A stretch of DNA of 64,000 nt from a virus. Of the stretch, positions 5,377 to 28,166 are shown piece after piece. Made by a program: the position numbers and the translations under genes. Each line of letters begins with the position of its first letter. Position 1 is the stretch's first letter. Where the stretch lies: the IMG/VR virus record IMGVR_UViG_3300027747_000967, positions 55,999 through 119,998 of that record; one strand, 5' to 3'. The notes under the pieces were generated by a model. The model saw nothing but the letters and a program-made list of their open reading frames with translations. It had not been told where the DNA came from and searched no databases.

Positions 5377-6380
5377 TCGTCTATCGTTTTCTTAAAATTG
5401 ATACCTTTATGGCCTAATGTTTTGGCCATTGCTTGTAAGTGTTCATCTTCATCTAAATCAACATGACTTTTTTCCAAATGTTTTACTTTAAACATCACCA
5501 TTCTTTTCATAGGATCGCCAGTTTTTTGATAAACTCTGAATTGTCCTTTACCTTTTGCTTCAGGTAATCCGTGGCCAGTTGCATCTTTTTTTCCTACTTT
5601 ATAAGTACCGTGTTTACCAACTTGCAAAACATGGACATGATGGTCTTTTAAATATCCGTTTGCTGGGTCCAAATTTTCATGTTCAAATAAAACATCTTTA
5701 GCTCTTTTGACATTTTCATTGGGCATATGATGTTTATTCATATGTTCTAAGATACCTTTTGCTTCAATATGTTTTGCATAAGTAGGCCTATTCGCCTTAT
5801 TCTTTTCGGGCATATGCCAACCGCCTTTGTTTTTATCATAGGCAATCGTCAATTGACCAAATGCGGCTGTTTTACCAATTTTTGTTTCACCTTGTAACAC
5901 TTTTTTATCTCCAACTTCTCTTTCACTATGAACTCTACCTTTATGTTTCTGTCCGGTTTTTTTATTAATTAAATTAAAATCATTACCAGCAGAAAAACCA
6001 GCGGCTTCTCCGTGCATCAAACCATGTTTTTTTAATCTTTCAACAAATTGTTTTTCATAATCAAAACCTTTATTAGCTTTTTGTTCACCAGGTTTAACAA
6101 TTTTATTTGCAGGTATTAAAGTTTTCTTTTTTGTAACATTATCGGTAGCATGAACAAATAATTTACCGTCATATCTTTCTGCTTTATGTAATATTAAATC
6201 AGCGCCTGCAGGAACATCTTTATGACCTACGCCTAGTTTATGAGTAGGCGTTTTACTATTCAAATGAGGTGTAACATATTGTTTTTCGTGTCTTTCTGTG
6301 TCAAATCCAGTTGCAGCAATATATCCTCTCGATTCAAGAATTAAATCTTCATAGAGAATATATTCTTTAAAATTAAACAT
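5373..6380 (-). CDS. Hypothetical protein, possible PD-(D/E)XK nuclease fold, capsid-targeting-like N-terminus
   Basis: GFDYE helix ... GNDF ... GETK ... FGQ pattern; starts MFNFKEY. Confidence 0.45.
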   Translation of the reverse strand: MFNFKEYILYEDLILESRGYIAATGFDTERHEKQYVTPHLNSKTPTHKLGVGHKDVPAGADLILHKAERYDGKLFVHATDNVTKKKTLIPANKIVKPGEQKANKGFDYEKQFVERLKKHGLMHGEAAGFSAGNDFNLINKKTGQKHKGRVHSEREVGDKKVLQGETKIGKTAAFGQLTIAYDKNKGGWHMPEKNKANRPTYAKHIEAKGILEHMNKHHMPNENVKRAKDVLFEHENLDPANGYLKDHHVHVLQVGKHGTYKVGKKDATGHGLPEAKGKGQFRVYQKTGDPMKRMVMFKVKHLEKSHVDLDEDEHLQAMAKTLGHKGINFKKTIDE

Positions 6381-23143: not shown

Positions 23144-24649
23144 CTATTCAACTCTAAGATTTCTTCTTTCTAATTCAGTTAAAATTAACTCCAATTGTTG
23201 TTTTTCCTTTAACATTATTTTTTTTGCATCTTGCCTTTCTTTAAACATTTTTTCAATTAAACTTGGCATAAATCCTTTAATATCGGTTCTGAAGAATTGT
23301 CCATTTGGCGTTAATGTTGCATTAACCAATCTAGAAGTCTCTACCTGTTTCATTAATAAACCGTCAAGTGATATACCATCAGATAAAATCTTACGCATTT
23401 CATCAGTATAGTTTTCAGGTTCAATTAAAGTTTCGGGACTTATATTGTATTGCATCATTAAACTTGGATATAGTGATGTTAAATCAAACGAAACAATCCA
23501 ATCATGTTTGCCTACTTGAACTTCTTTGACATATGCACCCTCAAACATACCGTCTTTTTCTTTATGTTCTTTTGGTGGAACAATGATTTTCTTATCCAAC
23601 AAATACGAATATGTGAGAGCGTCCCACATTCTTGTTTGTGCAAAGACATCTTCAAAGTTTGATTTTGTGTCGTATGCTAGTGTTACTGCTAATTCTAATA
23701 ATTTTAATTTTTCTTCAAGTTTTAGAATCAACATTACGTCTTTAATGTTATACTCAATAAATTTTTGGAAGTTTAGACGATATAACGCATGAAGATTGTC
23801 ATACTCATCATAAGATATTTTACCTTCACCCAACTCAACTTGAGCGATAGCATCCAAACGATAAGATTCTTGTGACTTACCGCCAGGAGCATACCATTTA
23901 TACAACTCAATATAATCTAATGATGCAAGACCCATCAAACTATATTCAATTAATGTTTTACCATTTACAAGTGTTTTTTTGTCACGAATATAATTCCATG
24001 GTGATAGTTTTTTTGCTTCATCTTCACCGAGAATCTTACGAAAACGATTTACAAGATAAGGTATATCGAAGAACTTTGTATTCCATCCTGTGATAATGTC
24101 TGGACACTTTTTAGACCACATTGTAAGAAACTTTTTACATAAAGTATATTCATCTTTACATTGTAAATAAATTTCATCACCTTGTGCATAGTATTCACCA
24201 CATCCAAACACTACGGTTTCGCCATTAAGATACTTTACACAAATAGCAGTAATAGGTTCATTGGCTTCGTATGGGTCAGGAAATCCATTCTCTGAACCTA
24301 CCTCAATATCTATTACGCCTATGAGAACTCTATCAAAATCATAATCAACTAATTTAGGATGCTGGTCAGCAATAAAGGCATACTCATAACGAGTTTGGCC
24401 ATACATTACAGGTGCACCAGGAAGTCCATCAAATTGTTTAATGTAATCTCTTGCTTCACGAATGTCTTGAAATTGTTTTCTATCTAATGGAAGGCCAGTG
24501 AGTGACTTATAAATTCCTTGTGGATTTTTTCTAGAAGGCAAAAAAAGAGAAGGCGCATAAGCAATCTTCTCTTTTACTCTCTTACCATTTTCTATTCCTC
24601 GGTAAAGAATATTATTACCGAGGACTTCTACGCTTGTATAAAAATTCAA
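23144..24649 (-). CDS. gp43: Family B DNA polymerase, N-terminal subunit (gp43A: exonuclease, motif A)
   Basis: IDIEV (Exo I), GWNTKFFDIPY (Exo II), YNIKDV (Exo III), SFDLTSLYP (motif A); ends in the fingers helix. Confidence 0.92.
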   Translation of the reverse strand: MNFYTSVEVLGNNILYRGIENGKRVKEKIAYAPSLFLPSRKNPQGIYKSLTGLPLDRKQFQDIREARDYIKQFDGLPGAPVMYGQTRYEYAFIADQHPKLVDYDFDRVLIGVIDIEVGSENGFPDPYEANEPITAICVKYLNGETVVFGCGEYYAQGDEIYLQCKDEYTLCKKFLTMWSKKCPDIITGWNTKFFDIPYLVNRFRKILGEDEAKKLSPWNYIRDKKTLVNGKTLIEYSLMGLASLDYIELYKWYAPGGKSQESYRLDAIAQVELGEGKISYDEYDNLHALYRLNFQKFIEYNIKDVMLILKLEEKLKLLELAVTLAYDTKSNFEDVFAQTRMWDALTYSYLLDKKIIVPPKEHKEKDGMFEGAYVKEVQVGKHDWIVSFDLTSLYPSLMMQYNISPETLIEPENYTDEMRKILSDGISLDGLLMKQVETSRLVNATLTPNGQFFRTDIKGFMPSLIEKMFKERQDAKKIMLKEKQQLELILTELERRNLRVE

Positions 24650-24651
24650 AA

Positions 24652-24960
24652 TTAACCTGTGATTAATTGTTTTGATGGAAGAACGATACCTGAACCAAAG
24701 ATTTGATTATAGTTATTTACAAAATCTTCTGCTGGTTCATAAGAGTATACTACATTCTTCTTAGCGATGGCAATAGTGGCACCTTTCTTTTGTGGTGCAT
24801 GAAGTGGAAATGGAGCAAAGCCAATGTTGGGTTGTCCGTCTTTACCACGAACTACAGCAATACCTACAGGGTTTGATAACACATATTCAGTTTCAGATTG
24901 TGATTCAATCTCACCTAAAACTTCTTCACCGTTAATTAATTTTAAGACTTGAATATTCAT
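24652..24960 (-). CDS. Small Sm-like-fold hypothetical protein
   Basis: KLINGEEVLG ... YNQIFGSGIVLP pattern common upstream of gene 43 in T4-like phages. Confidence 0.55.
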   Translation of the reverse strand: MNIQVLKLINGEEVLGEIESQSETEYVLSNPVGIAVVRGKDGQPNIGFAPFPLHAPQKKGATIAIAKKNVVYSYEPAEDFVNNYNQIFGSGIVLPSKQLITG

Positions 24961-24977
24961 AATTTTCCTTTGTTGAA

Positions 24978-25052
24978 TGGAGCGGATAGTCAGATTTGAA
25001 CTGACGACATTTTCGTTGGCAACGAAACATTCTACCCCTGAATTATACCCGC
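24978..25052 (-). tRNA. tRNA-Gly(GCC)
   Basis: GCGGGTA/TATCCGC acceptor, anticodon loop TTGCCAA, TTCAAAT T-loop, TCCA end. Confidence 0.92.
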
Positions 25053-25060
25053 ATGATACT

Positions 25061-25089
25061 ATTATATAATACTTATGAACGATTGTAAA
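25061..25089 (-). promoter_or_regulatory. Sigma70-like promoter for tRNA-Gly
   Basis: TTTACA-17-TATAAT. Confidence 0.65.
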
Positions 25090-25129
25090 GCACTATATAA
25101 TAATATACCACATTAAAAAAGAGAACAAA

Positions 25130-25411
25130 ATGAAAAAAACTATACTCAGTTTGTTATTTGTACCTATATTATCTTTTTCTCAAATCTCAGCACAAAAACC
25201 AGTCGCTTGTTTTCCAATGGATTATTTACAAAAAGAATTAAAAAAAGGCGAAGAAACACCTTTATTAATTTCAAAAAATAAAATGACCAACGAATCTACA
25301 ATCATTGTATTCAAAAATGAAAAAAATGGAACATGGACTATTATTGAATTCAAAGATGATTTTGGATGTGTTTTAGGTTTTGGTGTTGATAAAACAGGAA
25401 AATCTATTTAA
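25130..25411 (+). CDS. Small exported protein (signal peptide, two Cys)
   Basis: MKKTILSLLFVPILSFSQ leader; fills the gap between tRNA genes; the only credible plus-strand CDS. Confidence 0.7.
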   Translation: MKKTILSLLFVPILSFSQISAQKPVACFPMDYLQKELKKGEETPLLISKNKMTNESTIIVFKNEKNGTWTIIEFKDDFGCVLGFGVDKTGKSI

Positions 25412-25412
25412 T

Positions 25413-25486
25413 TGGTAGCGGGACCTGGATTTGCACCAAGAACTAAGGCTTATGAGGCCATTGTGATACTCTTTCACTATCCCGCA
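25413..25486 (-). tRNA. tRNA-Met(CAT), initiator-like
   Basis: Loop CTCATAA; unpaired U1:U72; T-loop TGCAAAT; ACCA end. Confidence 0.8.
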
Positions 25487-25496
25487 ATAGAAATTG

Positions 25497-25565
25497 TGGA
25501 GCGGTGTCTTTGAGTTGCACAAAGATAATTAAGAGGGAATCTCAATTTGTTCTCCAACCCACCGC
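25497..25565 (-). tRNA. Non-canonical tRNA-Gly(TCC)-like RNA
   Basis: 6-bp acceptor, 6-bp T-stem, 8-bp anticodon stem, 3-bp D-arm, U73-CCA. Confidence 0.6.
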
Positions 25566-25571
25566 ATATTC

Positions 25572-25715
25572 TTAATTTAATGTTATCTGCTCGATTTAGG
25601 GGTCTGGTGCTTCCATCCCATAGCGAATAAGCAGTTATCTCAGGACCTATTCCTCGCCAGTTAGACCCGAATAGTTAATACGTCTATTAACGATACCTTG
25701 ATAACACTAAATTAA
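25572..25715 (-). ncRNA. Structured RNA closed by a 16-bp stem
   Basis: TTAATTTAGTGTTATC/GATAACATTAAATTAA (G-U wobble only on the minus strand); internal GTTAATA/TATTAAC and GGGTCT/AGACCC helices. Confidence 0.65.
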
Positions 25716-25798
25716 AAATCCCGCTTACCGTTTGCGGGGTCATCATACCAGATTACTCGGTTCTATGACGGTCACAACTTGCTGTTTCTCAACAGTAG
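25711..25798 (-). ncRNA. Small promoter-proximal RNA with three hairpins
   Basis: CTGTT-GAGA-AACAG, GTCAT..ATGAC, CCCGC..GCGGG followed by ATTTTT. Confidence 0.45.
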
Positions 25799-25803
25799 AT
25801 ACT

Positions 25804-25832
25804 AGTATAACATTATATATATCAAAAGTCAA
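25804..25832 (-). promoter_or_regulatory. Sigma70-like promoter with extended -10
   Basis: TTGACT-17-TATACT with TG at the extended -10 position. Confidence 0.75.
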
Positions 25833-25851
25833 GCGACTTTTTGGTATACTT

Positions 25852-25929
25852 TGGAGCAACGGGTCAGATTTGAACTGACGGCTTTACGGCTTTGCAGGCC
25901 GTTGCATTTGACCACTCTGCCACCGTTGC
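25852..25929 (-). tRNA. tRNA-Cys(GCA)
   Basis: GCAACGG/CCGTTGC acceptor, loop CTGCAAA, U73-CCA. Confidence 0.92.
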
Positions 25930-25937
25930 ATAATGAA

Positions 25938-26044
25938 TTTGTAGTAGGCATGAACACAATCATATTAGTTTGCGCTTCGATATTTAACGCCACTTGCGTG
26001 GTTCCGCAACACCTTTTACATATCATCACGATAGTTACTACAAA
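25938..26044 (-). ncRNA. Stem-closed inter-tRNA RNA
   Basis: TTTGTAGTA/TACTACAAA terminal stem; internal TTGCG/CGCAA hairpin. Confidence 0.45.
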
Positions 26045-26046
26045 AC

Positions 26047-26122
26047 TGGTGCCCCATGTCCGACTCGAACAGACCACCTACTGATTACAAATCAGTTACT
26101 CTACCAGATGAGCTAATGGGGC
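26047..26122 (-). tRNA. tRNA-Thr(TGT)
   Basis: GCCCCAT/ATGGGGC acceptor, ACTGA-TTTGTAA-TCAGT anticodon arm, ACCA end. Confidence 0.93.
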
Positions 26123-26178
26123 AATTGTATCCTATTATATACAATAACTCAAATTAATGCACATAATAGGATACAATT
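26123..26178. repeat. Perfect 16-bp inverted repeat overlapping the 3' end of the small ORF
   Basis: aattgtatcctattat (26123-26138) / ataataggatacaatt (26163-26178). Confidence 0.9.
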
Positions 26179-26299
26179 TTTTAGATTTCTCTTTACGTCT
26201 TAAAGCTTTGTTACTTTTTTTATGACTACCCGCTTTACGAAACAATGCCAATTTGACAAGATAGTTTCGTTCTTTGGGAGTAGAATCTTTCTTTTTCAT
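26135..26299 (-). CDS. 54-aa basic protein, ArfA-like candidate
   Basis: AAGGAGAG SD; MKKKDSTPKERNYLVKLALFRKAGSHKKSNKALRRKEKSKKLYPIMCINLSYCI; below the ORF-track length cutoff. Confidence 0.65.
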   Translation of the reverse strand: MKKKDSTPKERNYLVKLALFRKAGSHKKSNKALRRKEKSKKLYPIMCINLSYCI

Positions 26300-26316
26300 C
26301 TTACTCTCCTTAAAAT

Positions 26317-26546
26317 TAGGACGGGCTACTTCCTGTCATAGAAGCCCCCGATTGGAATTCATCGTTAGCCATATTCCCGATATGTAATGGCAAACATTGT
26401 CAATTAATAAGGGTAATGTGACAACCCACTTGCGTAAGCAGAGCAAGATAACCCCCGATTTAAAGCTCGGCAACTTATGACAACTGATTGGCCGGCCCCA
26501 CTCATGGGATACCATTTAATCTAGGCTTTCTTCGTGCTATATCCTA
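26317..26546 (-). ncRNA. About 230-nt structured RNA or leader
   Basis: GC-enriched and ORF-free; TAGGAT/GTCCTA closing helix; AATCGGGGG twice; TGTCATA/TATGACA possible pseudoknot. Confidence 0.55.
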
Positions 26547-26557
26547 GAACCAAAACT

Positions 26558-26634
26558 TGGCGGTCTGTATCGGACTTGAACCGATGGTCTCCTCCGTGAC
26601 AGGGAGGCGATTTAACCAACTAATCTAACAAACC
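26558..26634 (-). tRNA. tRNA-Asp(GTC)
   Basis: CCTCC-CTGTCAC-GGAGG anticodon arm, G73-CCA. Confidence 0.93.
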
Positions 26635-26729
26635 ATATTGAAGCACACTATTGAGATTCCACTTTTCAAGTCAGGGTCCGGATGACCAAGCGCCGCTTCT
26701 CGCAGGTAGGGAATAATGTGCTTCAATAT
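26635..26729 (-). ncRNA. Stem-closed inter-tRNA RNA (18-bp stem)
   Basis: ATATTGAAGCACATTATT/AATAGTGTGCTTCAATAT (U-G wobble on the minus strand), exactly filling the Glu-Asp spacer. Confidence 0.6.
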
Positions 26730-26803
26730 GGCGCTCGGTACCAGATTCGAACTGGTGTGACCGCCGTGAAAGGGCGATATCCTAACCGCTAGATGAACCG
26801 AGC
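26729..26803 (-). tRNA. tRNA-Glu(TTC)
   Basis: GCTCGGT/ACCGAGC acceptor, loop CTTTCAC, G73-CCA. Confidence 0.93.
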
Positions 26804-26829
26804 ATATTTACAACATTTACAACATGAAT

Positions 26830-26841
26830 TTTTAAAGAACA
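26830..26841 (-). promoter_or_regulatory. boxA-like antitermination element
   Basis: TGTTCTTTAAAA versus rrn boxA TGCTCTTTAACA, between the promoter and the first tRNA. Confidence 0.6.
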
Positions 26842-26862
26842 GTTATTACTTAATATACAACC

Positions 26863-26890
26863 ATTATACATGAACCACCGAATAAGTCAA
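26863..26890 (-). promoter_or_regulatory. Sigma70-like promoter of the tRNA operon
   Basis: TTGACT-16-TATAAT. Confidence 0.75.
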
Positions 26891-26904
26891 TCATTATTTT
26901 ACTA

Positions 26905-26946
26905 CTGTTGTTTTTTTACTACAGATGTGTTGTATTTCTACAACAC
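26905..26946. repeat. Two 20-bp palindromic STGTTGT-N6-ACWACAS boxes (third copy at 27580-27599)
   Basis: ctgttgtttttttactacag and gtgttgtatttctacaacac. Confidence 0.7.
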
Positions 26947-27459
26947 TTATTGATATTGTTTCCAACCAATAGGTTCTTCCTCTATTGGGTCATCTGGATT
27001 ACAAATGCCTTCAAATACTTCCCATAATTTTTCTTGAACTACAAATTTACGAAATAAACCACCTTCCATTCCGTATGCTTCTATTTCCCAAGGTTGACTC
27101 CAATAATCCAAATCTTCTGCTACATGAGCACCTTTCCAACGAGTTAGGTTATCATTGGTTTCACTATAAGCGTATTGTTTAATGTGAACCATCTCATGGC
27201 CTAAAGATTTAAGAATATTTCTTCCACCAATCTTTGGATTCATTTCAATCAAAAAGTTTCTGGCTTTACCTAAATCTGTTCTTTCTTCAACGGAAGCATA
27301 TCCATAAACATCATCAATCTTTTTATTAAAGATAACTTTGATACAGATATTTTCCAACATTTTTGCGGTAAGTAATTCTTGCGCATAGAATAAAATAGCC
27401 CTTTTGACATAAGGACGGAATCGCTCTTTATCGGGACAACCAACTATACTTAACTTCAT
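26947..27459 (-). CDS. HExxH zincin-like metallopeptidase-domain protein
   Basis: LGHEMVHIKQY, PWEIEAY. Confidence 0.7.
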   Translation of the reverse strand: MKLSIVGCPDKERFRPYVKRAILFYAQELLTAKMLENICIKVIFNKKIDDVYGYASVEERTDLGKARNFLIEMNPKIGGRNILKSLGHEMVHIKQYAYSETNDNLTRWKGAHVAEDLDYWSQPWEIEAYGMEGGLFRKFVVQEKLWEVFEGICNPDDPIEEEPIGWKQYQ

Positions 27460-27536
27460 TTAGGTCTCTCCTTAGAAAATTGACCCAATAATTGGCATGA
27501 TACCGTTCTTACTCACACATGACTATTTATTGTATT

Positions 27537-27565
27537 ATTATACTCTGGTTTAAGAGTTTTGTCAA
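27537..27565 (-). promoter_or_regulatory. Consensus sigma70 promoter
   Basis: TTGACA-17-TATAAT. Confidence 0.85.
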
Positions 27566-27599
27566 GAAGATTTTGTAAACTGTTGTTTTTTTACAACAC

Positions 27600-27953
27600 T
27601 TATGCTTGACGCCTGAAAAATCTTTGTTTGATATTTTTTGGTTTGAAATGTTCTTCAATTGATTTGACCACTTTTGTTTCATCAAAATCTTTGCAACTAA
27701 AGATATCCATATAAAGGTCACCATTAATATCTAAAAAGTGACCCATAATATTAGAAGTTTCAATAAGTTGTGATACTGTCCATCCTGCTTTATCTGTTCC
27801 ATCAGCAAAATGAACAAGTTGTGGTTCACCATAAGGAACCATTTCAATTAAACGAACTAAATCTTTAGTGAAGTGTGTAATGTATTCTGGATCCGTTGCT
27901 CTTTGAATTTCGCAACCCTTTATATCTAACATTAAATGGTAACCCCAATACAT
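27600..27953 (-). CDS. speD: S-adenosylmethionine decarboxylase proenzyme
   Basis: WGYHLMLD, QLIETSNI (pyruvoyl-forming Ser), YMDIFSCK. Confidence 0.88.
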   Translation of the reverse strand: MYWGYHLMLDIKGCEIQRATDPEYITHFTKDLVRLIEMVPYGEPQLVHFADGTDKAGWTVSQLIETSNIMGHFLDINGDLYMDIFSCKDFDETKVVKSIEEHFKPKNIKQRFFRRQA

Positions 27954-27962
27954 AACTACTCC

Positions 27963-28166
27963 TTAATAGATATTAAGATAATATTTAGTTAGTTTATCCT
28001 TAAGCATATCAGGAATTGTTAGATAAGGCCATTCAAGGTAAAATGGACATCCTTTATTACCCCATTGTTTTTTAACAAGAAAACTTTTTGTTATTTCAAT
28101 ATCTTCCTTGGAACCTTCAAATTGTCTTTTTTGAGGTGTGAACATCATTTCAAGTTTATTACTCAT
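27963..28166 (-). CDS. Small hypothetical protein
   Basis: Start revised to MSNKLE, downstream of the promoter; WG..GCPFYLEWPY motif. Confidence 0.6.
   Translation of the reverse strand: MSNKLEMMFTPQKRQFEGSKEDIEITKSFLVKKQWGNKGCPFYLEWPYLTIPDMLKDKLTKYYLNIY

Follow-up and report, generated by a model that had tools for sequence, protein, structure and literature searches.

Since T4 it has been known that phage tRNA clusters also encode RNAs that are not tRNAs, and these were never explained. The question is raised again by a tRNA array in a 64-kb stretch of viral DNA, here called the window, which is the final part of a 120-kb IMG/VR record (IMGVR_UViG_3300027747_000967, 71% complete): what occupies the spacers between the tRNA genes, and does it matter as RNA, as DNA or not at all? 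An earlier note on the window had proposed that most spacers are bounded by long terminal stems next to the tRNA ends, and that tRNA processing releases from them stable small RNAs analogous to the T4 species I/II RNAs. The analysis described here found structured RNA modules, designated E1 to E4, in exact register with tRNA ends, maintained by selection on the RNA strand and exchanged as units among related phages. From this anatomy we infer co-transcription of the array, the enzymes that would process it, accumulation of the products and any action in trans, for example the binding or titration of a host or phage protein.

The source is a freshwater T4-like virus, an uncultured lake phage. 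The family-B DNA polymerase fragment adjoining the array was 43% identical to that of Synechococcus T4-like myophages, and related contigs came from freshwater metagenomes, lake included. The genome is AT-rich, with a GC content that climbs to 40-52% across the array region. All six tRNA genes, on which ARAGORN and Rfam agreed, are on the minus strand. Read 5' to 3' along that strand, the order is a promoter-like site, tRNA-Glu, E1, tRNA-Asp, E2a, E2b, a small protein gene (ORF54), tRNA-Thr, E3 and tRNA-Cys, followed by E6, E4, the tRNA-Gly look-alike E5, tRNA-Met, a 93-residue open reading frame on the opposite strand, a promoter-like site, tRNA-Gly, a gene for a 102-residue protein and the polymerase. 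The loci of relatives were gathered by means of two flanking proteins and DNA patterns (n = 246 after removal of two loci from the genome itself), and homologues of the modules were sought across them with nhmmer.

Structured modules in the spacers

E4 (25572-25715, minus strand, as are the other modules), defined by its fold and by alignment, is a 144-nt module with a 19-24-bp stalk and a multi-hairpin interior. The copy in the window folded with a closing stem of about 19 bp, a fold equaled by 3 of 200 shuffled sequences (z = -2.71), and its inverted repeat is 20 nt long and 90% complementary. Relatives were found at 18 loci, giving ten unique sequences with that of the window, from which RNAalifold derived a 24-bp stalk, a 7-bp hairpin with the loop RGACGY, a 6-bp hairpin and smaller helices. 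In this structure, which was predicted from the same alignment that was used for the count, 96.2% of 470 alignment cells were paired and 29 of the 47 pairs had a compensatory change. None of 500 column shuffles reached any of the five measures, and sliding the partners by 1-3 columns gave 38-48% pairing and 6-7 compensatory pairs. In the window the neighbors of E4 on its two sides, E6 and E5, are RNAs other than tRNAs; elsewhere E4 lies between tRNA-Glu and tRNA-Lys (L229) or between tRNA-Pro and tRNA-Asn (L130). At four loci (L238, L232, L235 and L229), where the 170-residue protein encoded upstream of the array is 50-53% identical to that of the window, E4 directly follows a tRNA ending in ACCA and the CCA is part of the stalk (CCAUUUG/CAAAUGG).

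E3 (25930-26046), a 117-nt module with a GNRA-capped hairpin and two further helices, lies between tRNA-Thr(UGU) (26047-26122) and tRNA-Cys(GCA) (25852-25929). It was identified by its fold and by comparison of three sequences, that of the window and two homologues in the His-Val spacer of L129 and the Ser-Cys spacer of L238. L129 also contains a tRNA with a CUA (amber-reading) anticodon, called by ARAGORN at 992-1066. The 9-bp stalk of E3 joins 26036-26044 to 25938-25946. In all three spacers the homology extends from the first base after the upstream tRNA to just beyond the stalk. The 22 pairs drawn by hand were 97% paired in these three sequences only, and six of the eight pairs of the two interior hairpins were altered on both sides, with the GNRA tetraloop retained (CCAC[GCAA]GUGG to UGGC[GAAA]GUCA). 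The observed values were matched by 3 of 500 shuffles, and slid partners gave one compensatory pair or none.

The spacer 26317-26546 was at first treated as a single unit, E2, a definition that was rejected in favor of a composite of E2a and E2b. The 5' part of the spacer was missing in all relatives, and its ends could be joined by eye through a 6-bp pairing only (UAGGAU/GUCCUA), which is not in the minimum free energy (MFE) fold. E2a (26485-26557), a 73-nt insert with local hairpins, was recognized by sequence comparison in the window alone and had no nhmmer match in the 246 loci. In L003, where the 170-residue protein is 100% identical to that of the window, E2b is 99% identical and follows the CCA of tRNA-Asp directly, with no E2a. 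E2b (26319-26484), a 166-nt structured RNA defined by homologues and covariation, was found at 21 loci as 11 unique sequences of three subtypes, and in the relatives begins immediately 3' of a tRNA CCA. As read by eye, with no formal count, the 6-7 bases at its start find their partner 16-20 nt from the 3' end, inside the loop of a GGGCU/AGCCC hairpin, and the pairing differs by subtype (UGUCAUA/UAUGACA, GUUGUC/GACAAC and GUGUCA/UGACAC). Two hairpins also covary across the three subtypes, one of 4 bp (CCGA/UCGG to CCUC/GAGG) and one of 5 bp (GCCAU/AUGGC to GUUAC/GUAAC), while a 20-nt core is invariant.

The place of these RNAs and the pseudoknot at the 5' end of E2b recall the HDV-like theta ribozymes of gut phages, structured RNAs described as lying immediately 3' of phage tRNA genes and thought to serve tRNA maturation (PMC10879173). 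That the modules are self-cleaving ribozymes that mature the neighboring tRNA ends is nevertheless highly improbable. The likeness is one of position; the helix topology of the array RNAs does not fit, and the other HDV helices would have no space in E2b, where the partner of the 5' end is situated 16-20 nt short of the 3' end. No ribozyme family was matched at E values up to 1 in the window region and ten loci of relatives. The scan with Rfam 15, suggested in the earlier note and run at the same limit on positions 24000-28000 and these ten loci, returned tRNAs and sub-threshold chance hits only, so that the spacers match no family other than tRNAs. Similarly, when 24900-27000 was compared with 50,697 phage records by blastn (word size 11), only tRNAs were matched, and a keyword search of the open-access literature found no description of these RNA families, of a stalk enclosing a cargo or of a tRNA-Gly mimic with a pentaloop.

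E1 (26635-26728), recognized by its fold and inverted repeat, is a 94-nt module that fills the spacer between tRNA-Glu(UUC) (26729-26803, encoded CCA, Rfam 55.1 bits) and tRNA-Asp(GUC) (26558-26634, 66.1 bits), extending from the base after the tRNA-Glu CCA to 2 nt short of tRNA-Asp. Its MFE fold has a 17-bp closing stem and was equaled by 1 of 200 shuffles (z = -3.63). The inverted repeat, 20 nt and 95% complementary with arms at 26633-26652 and 26712-26731, continues into the tRNA genes, where the tRNA-Glu CCA is matched by the UGG with which tRNA-Asp begins. Five loci carried relatives, which comprised three unique and nearly identical sequences.

Among the longest 25 of the 83 inverted repeats in the window, E1 and E4 were the only ones of at least 20 nt with at least 90% complementarity. 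As the best near-perfect inverted repeats present, they could be signals that act as DNA (cruciforms, replication or packaging sites, recombination hot spots) and fall in the array fortuitously. The strand asymmetry of the mismatches speaks against this explanation. As the earlier note had seen, each of the two stems has a single G-U pair on the tRNA strand, and the plus-strand folds are interrupted there and weaker (E1, -30.6 kcal/mol on the minus strand versus -26.0 on the plus strand; E4, -37.8 versus -29.4). When the comparison was extended to stalks chosen by Watson-Crick pairs only, a choice that is neutral between strands, the other positions comprised 17 G-U, 4 A-C and 6 of other kinds, and the sense strand was the more stable in 15 of the 18 spacers so chosen and, over the whole set of 236 unique spacers, in 175. 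In the E4 family alone there were 41 G-U cells against 2 A-C cells. In view also of the covarying interior hairpins with GNRA loops and of the exact register with tRNA ends, an origin in DNA-level signals is scarcely credible. The RNA-level selection claimed in the earlier note was thus borne out, both by the preference for G-U over A-C and by the compensatory changes found within E4, E3 and E2b. The terminal stems that it listed were recovered for E1, E3 and E4 (17-20, 9 and 19-24 bp), with no conserved terminal stem in 26317-26546, and two of the three, E1 and E3, adjoin tRNA ends in the window.

Conserved stalks and exchangeable interiors

Two sites in the array showed a pattern that the earlier note had not described. 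The 12 unique Glu-Asp spacers, the window's included, start with UAUUGAA/UAUUAAAA and end with UUCAAUAU/UUUUAAUAU. Their stalks are 9-20 bp long and enclose interiors that are mutually unrelated and make spacers of 61-297 nt. In L003 the same stalk is placed after a 14-nt leader at the 5' end, and in L164 two stalked modules stand in tandem. At the junction of E6 and E5 the inserts, whether E4 or another, start with AUUUUUAA and end with UUAAGAAUAU right before E5. At each of the two sites, then, the outer stalk is kept while the cargo is swapped.

A kept stalk around unrelated interiors is also what would be expected if the stalks were processing punctuation only, keeping the tRNAs apart and properly folded or serving RNase III, with the interiors as tolerated filler. 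The strain-specific insert E2a and the many singletons among the spacers (54 of 80 clusters) fit this explanation as well, although the single-linkage clustering itself, in which shared promoters join units together, was set aside as little informative. Within E4, E3 and E2b, however, the interiors covary in phages in which the neighboring protein is only 50-53% identical, and the same interior moves with its own stalk to other tRNA pairs. An account in terms of punctuation is therefore unlikely, though it has a real claim to attention.

The exchange could instead be that of selfish cassettes, resembling miniature inverted-repeat transposable elements (MITEs) or the promoter/stem-loop (PeSL) cassettes at which T4-type phages are described as shuffling genes (PMC2839356), in which case the terminal inverted repeats would serve transfer and not the RNA. 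Indeed, the presence of modules varies among near-identical relatives: E2a is confined to the window, E4 is missing from L009 and L164, and in L056 tRNA-Glu and tRNA-Cys are adjacent. The same module also occurs in differing contexts, and variant contigs swap single units. In contigs from other samples 220-226 other letters replace 26054-26121, most of the tRNA-Thr gene, with E3 intact; these contigs are DNA only and give neither RNA ends nor strand. On the other hand, each module is present in one copy per genome, the 1242-nt array region matching only itself in the 120-kb record, so that the dispersed copies that characterize MITEs are lacking despite the terminal inverted repeats. No transposase or endonuclease gene was seen among the open reading frames of the array, and both the excess of G-U over A-C and the covariation of the interiors point to selection on RNA. 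Mobility of the selfish kind is accordingly a distinctly improbable explanation.

A likeness to PeSL cassettes is seen in E6 (25716-25851), a conserved promoter with three hairpins, which was defined by motif and homologues and was likewise absent from the earlier note. Three hairpins come after its strong-looking sigma-70 promoter (25832-25804, TTGACT-17-TATACT): the first has a GNRA cap, the second is variable and covaries, and the third is GC-rich and terminator-like, with a U run after it. The hairpin part, E6b, was found at 40 loci as 17 unique sequences, in which hairpins 2 and 3 covary. The insertions of relatives fall exactly beside E6, and the U run is present only where an insert separates E6 from E5; in L009, L164, L117, L042 and L033, which have no insert, the last hairpin joins E5 directly and the U run is missing. 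Unlike PeSL cassettes, which are repeated units of promoter and terminator stem-loop dispersed over plastic regions, E6 has one copy in this genome and is found within a tRNA array, and what it leads are non-coding RNAs, not ORFan genes.

The glycine tRNA look-alike and the protein neighbors

E5 (25497-25565, minus strand), a third element that the earlier note had not mentioned, is a 69-nt look-alike of tRNA-Gly, identified by its fold, its homologues and a covariance model. ARAGORN and Rfam did not call it in the window or in the relatives. The window's copy starts with GCGG, ends with CCGC-U-CCA and has a 3-bp D hairpin, an 8-bp arm with a 5-nt loop and a T-like arm. Relatives were present at 125 of the 246 loci (131 matches, 129 copies extracted), and all 44 unique sequences (67-70 nt) have the same start and end. 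A four-helix cloverleaf was the single-sequence MFE structure of 40 of the 44, made up of the acceptor helix, the 3-bp D-like hairpin, an arm of 8-9 bp and a T-like arm whose 7-nt loop has an invariant G and C. The loop of the long arm has five bases in 42 sequences (UACCC in 15, GUCCA in 15, UUCCC in 8, CACCC in 3 and AACCC in 1).

An alignment of all 44 sequences with MAFFT and RNAalifold was discarded because the central arm was mis-registered in 21 of them, the window's among these, and the formal count was limited to the 23 sequences of one subtype, type C. Here the 22 pairs were 99.6% paired, with 11 compensatory, and none of 500 shuffles did as well. Covariation extends to the pair that closes the pentaloop (A-U to G-C and, by eye, C-G in L056), which establishes a loop of five bases and not a seven-base anticodon loop as in canonical tRNA (RF00005). 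An RNA with such a loop on an arm of 8-9 bp cannot decode.

The covariance model built from the 23 sequences found one copy in the genome itself, at 49.8 bits. A stricter DNA pattern applied to IMG/VR gave 110 further stretches with 41 distinct matches, most of them cloverleaf variants of E5; some are identical to the earlier 44, and others represent new subtypes or tandem pairs. With a loose pattern in bacterial genomes, 100 of at least 120 loci were scored with the model R1 and none was real (best, 16.2 bits). Two different E5-like RNAs, 6 nt apart, are in tandem in L376, L401, L404, L406, L407, L417, L424, L433, L437 and L443, and in L010 a degenerate tRNA (5987-6063, 26.6 bits) comes right after an E5 copy. 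In 66 distinct contexts, a -10-like box ended 4-9 nt upstream of G1 in 49, 39 of which also had TTGAC further upstream, and tRNA-Gly was found within 15 nt downstream of 23 copies. By these motifs E5 often appears to be the first gene behind a promoter, and it is frequently followed by tRNA-Gly. In the window the next gene, 10 nt after E5, is tRNA-Met(CAU) (25413-25486).

The identity set of bacterial tRNA-Gly is given as G1-C72, C2-G71, G3-C70 and U73 in the acceptor and C35 and C36 in the anticodon (PMC9976931). Its acceptor part is complete and invariant in all 44 unique E5 sequences. The loop always contains CC, although within a pentaloop on an arm longer than an anticodon arm. Dedicated tRNA-Gly species that evade EF-Tu are also described (PMC9976931). 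Like the non-proteinogenic staphylococcal tRNA-Gly, E5 combines the glycine acceptor set with an altered T-loop, in which G takes the place of pseudouridine 55; it differs in that it is phage-encoded, has the pentaloop on an 8-9-bp arm and a 3-bp D hairpin, and is missed by tRNA finders. The staphylococcal species has a 'GUGC' T-loop.

Several proteins read or use tRNA-Gly through its acceptor end. The Mom protein of phage Mu is described as modifying DNA with Gly-tRNA-Gly (PMC13219725), TacT as acetylating Gly-tRNA-Gly through U73 and G71 (PMC9976931), and the toxic alarmone synthetase FaRel2, implicated in anti-phage immunity, as selecting tRNA-Gly by its acceptor stem (PMC11559606). A role of E5 as glycyl donor found no support: neither Mom (the family or the Mu protein) nor FemAB nor GNAT was found in the record, which is 71% complete. 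Mom was not found in the records of 12 relatives, one of them complete, and GNAT was present in one of three relatives' records. It may also be hypothesized that E5 is a decoy for effectors that read tRNA-Gly.

Protein genes lie within and around the array. ORF54 (26135-26299, minus strand), identified from the list of open reading frames and by tblastn, encodes a small, very basic protein of 54 residues. Its 33 tblastn matches in related loci represent 18 distinct variants with the conserved core …FRKAGSH(R/K)KSNKA…, and no Pfam or PHROG match was obtained. A 25-nt inverted repeat (88%) at 26123-26178 overlaps the 3' end of ORF54 just before tRNA-Thr. Upstream of the array, the 170-residue protein (26947-27459, minus strand) has an HEMVH motif, a possible zinc protease signature; it is a conserved upstream neighbor of tRNA arrays, with 343 relatives in IMG/VR and PHROG matches that are all unannotated. 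Two genes upstream of the array is a 117-residue protein of the S-adenosylmethionine decarboxylase family (27600-27953, minus strand; Pfam AdoMet_dc, E 4.9e-18). Between tRNA-Met and tRNA-Gly(GCC) (24978-25052, minus strand), the 93-residue open reading frame (25130-25411, plus strand) has a hydrophobic N-terminus resembling a signal peptide and was without a match in Pfam and PHROG.

Directly after tRNA-Gly, the gene for the 102-residue protein (24652-24960, minus strand) was characterized with AF2 and Foldseek as having a predicted Sm/LSm-like fold. The Pfam Sm_like score is below the cut-off (17.3 versus 29.4 bits) and PHROG gives no annotation. The best AF2 model had a pLDDT of 71.7, with the other four at 38-45; its top Foldseek match was 3by7 (E 9e-6, target-normalised TM 0.79-0.81), a pentameric protein of the Sm/LSm-like kind, putatively from a cyanophage, followed by dozens of Sm/LSm chains. 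The model thus predicts an Sm-type small beta-barrel with a C-terminal helix, a trait noted for Sm-like proteins of the pentameric 'cyanophage' type 3BY7 (PMC3710371). In the relatives a tRNA is found no more than 700 nt away at only 11 of 74 distinct loci, so the adjacency of the gene to the array is not a conserved linkage and the idea of a dedicated partner was rejected. On the strength of the predicted fold it is possible, with only a weak link, that the protein binds the array RNAs. A resemblance to Y RNAs was also dismissed, no TROVE/Ro60 protein having been found.

Proposed processing of the array and its meaning

Judged on the anatomy alone, tRNA processing, possibly with RNase III, probably releases small RNAs that are protected from exonucleases, a reading held with moderate confidence. 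The array would comprise polycistronic units under sigma-70-like promoters, with autonomous modules of structured RNA interspersed among the tRNAs. Promoter-like sites precede tRNA-Glu (26863-26890, minus strand, TTGACT-16-TATAAT, 11 of 12 consensus matches), E6 and tRNA-Gly (25089-25061, a motif match), the first being the likely start of the first array transcript; in the region as a whole, the 12 sigma-70-like sites do not exceed the 10.6 expected from shuffles. The bases that directly follow the upstream CCA are paired, in E1, E3 and E4, with those that immediately precede the next RNase P substrate, and in E1, as in E4 of four relatives, the CCA itself joins the pairing, giving a stalk around a folded cargo. 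Lying directly against tRNA ends, the modules would be set free by tRNA processing. The 3' side would be set where RNase P cuts, at E5 or the downstream tRNA, and tRNA 3'-end processing would set the 5' side, a task that host RNase III may take over for stalks of 17-24 bp. The paired ends of the small RNA so freed would shield it from exonucleases. E2b is closed by the pairing of its 5' end with the 3' loop rather than by a stalk, and E5 is a tRNA-shaped RNA with the acceptor identity of glycine and no anticodon loop.

In rRNA operons and in the early RNA of phage T7, the flanks of the released RNA pair and thereby unite the sites cut by RNase III. This is the best mechanistic analogy for E1 (20 bp) and E4 (19-24 bp), the stalks of which reach the usual length, although the RNA enclosed here is 60-170 nt long and not rRNA, the stalk includes the CCA of a tRNA, and that of E3 has 9 bp.

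Several observations weigh against release of this kind. RNase III usually requires a duplex of about two helical turns, and of the modules only E1 and E4 reach a length of about 20 bp; E3 (9 bp) is therefore too short, and E2b (6-7 bp) does not reach that length either. No RNase III gene was found in the record or in those of three relatives, one of them 100% complete, so the cut would need a host enzyme. Among the sequencing runs listed for the stretch, none is recorded as RNA. The folds of two spacers are ordinary: E3 was equaled by 30 of 200 shuffles over the whole spacer (z = -1.10), and 26317-26546 had the energy of its shuffles (z = -0.05; 93 of 200). The relatives of E1 are too nearly identical for covariation to bear on its interior, and the hypervariable cargo at the Glu-Asp site is equally compatible with interiors of no importance. 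Lastly, the relatives have 236 unique spacers of 50-450 nt; a closing stem of at least 9 bp was present in 24% (shuffle mean 5.6), and in 13% the closing stem beat all 30 shuffles. Long stalks are thus recurrent in the arrays of this phage group and not a rule, and the statement of the earlier note that most spacers are bounded by stems does not extend to the relatives.

The comparison with T4 proposed in that note was apt for the context and not for the build. RNAC (species 1) and RNAD (species 2) of T4 are also non-tRNA RNAs arranged head-to-tail with tRNAs on the same strand, rnaD starting 1 nt after tRNA-Arg and rnaC 6 nt after rnaD. They do not share the sequence of the array modules, the blastn comparison having matched only tRNAs, and interchangeable cargo is a feature of the present array. 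The fold of T4 rnaC includes a canonical T-arm and a pairing of the ends that is short, and rnaD lacks a long stalk, whereas three modules here have stalks of 9-24 bp; E5, unlike E1-E4, resembles rnaC in being tRNA-shaped. The roles of the T4 RNAs are given as still unexplained after decades in the account of them in PMC3014915.

The locus yields at least five RNA families not in Rfam, with clear boundaries and covariation, together with a design rule, a conserved stalk that includes the CCA of a tRNA around a swappable cargo, and a very widespread look-alike that keeps exactly the acceptor bases read by glycyl-tRNA synthetase. If the favored reading holds, the logic of packaging and processing might also be reused in synthetic tRNA arrays. 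A quite unlikely extension, by which the array would be an RNA 'toolbox' against host immunity, makes E5 a sponge for immune effectors or a feeder of glycine and the cargos decoys. If this were true, a chargeable, non-decoding E5 would absorb synthetases of the FaRel2 type or acetyltransferases of the TacT type that read the acceptor stem of tRNA-Gly, or would alternatively supply glycine to a transferase, and the stalk-closed cargos would be rapidly exchanged, protein-titrating decoys, each supplied in the same nuclease-proof wrapping. Bacterial immunity and phage DNA modification are described as having recently been shown to act via the acceptor end of tRNA-Gly (PMC11559606; PMC13219725), and the RNAs of the array are therefore concrete candidates for RNA-based counter-defence.

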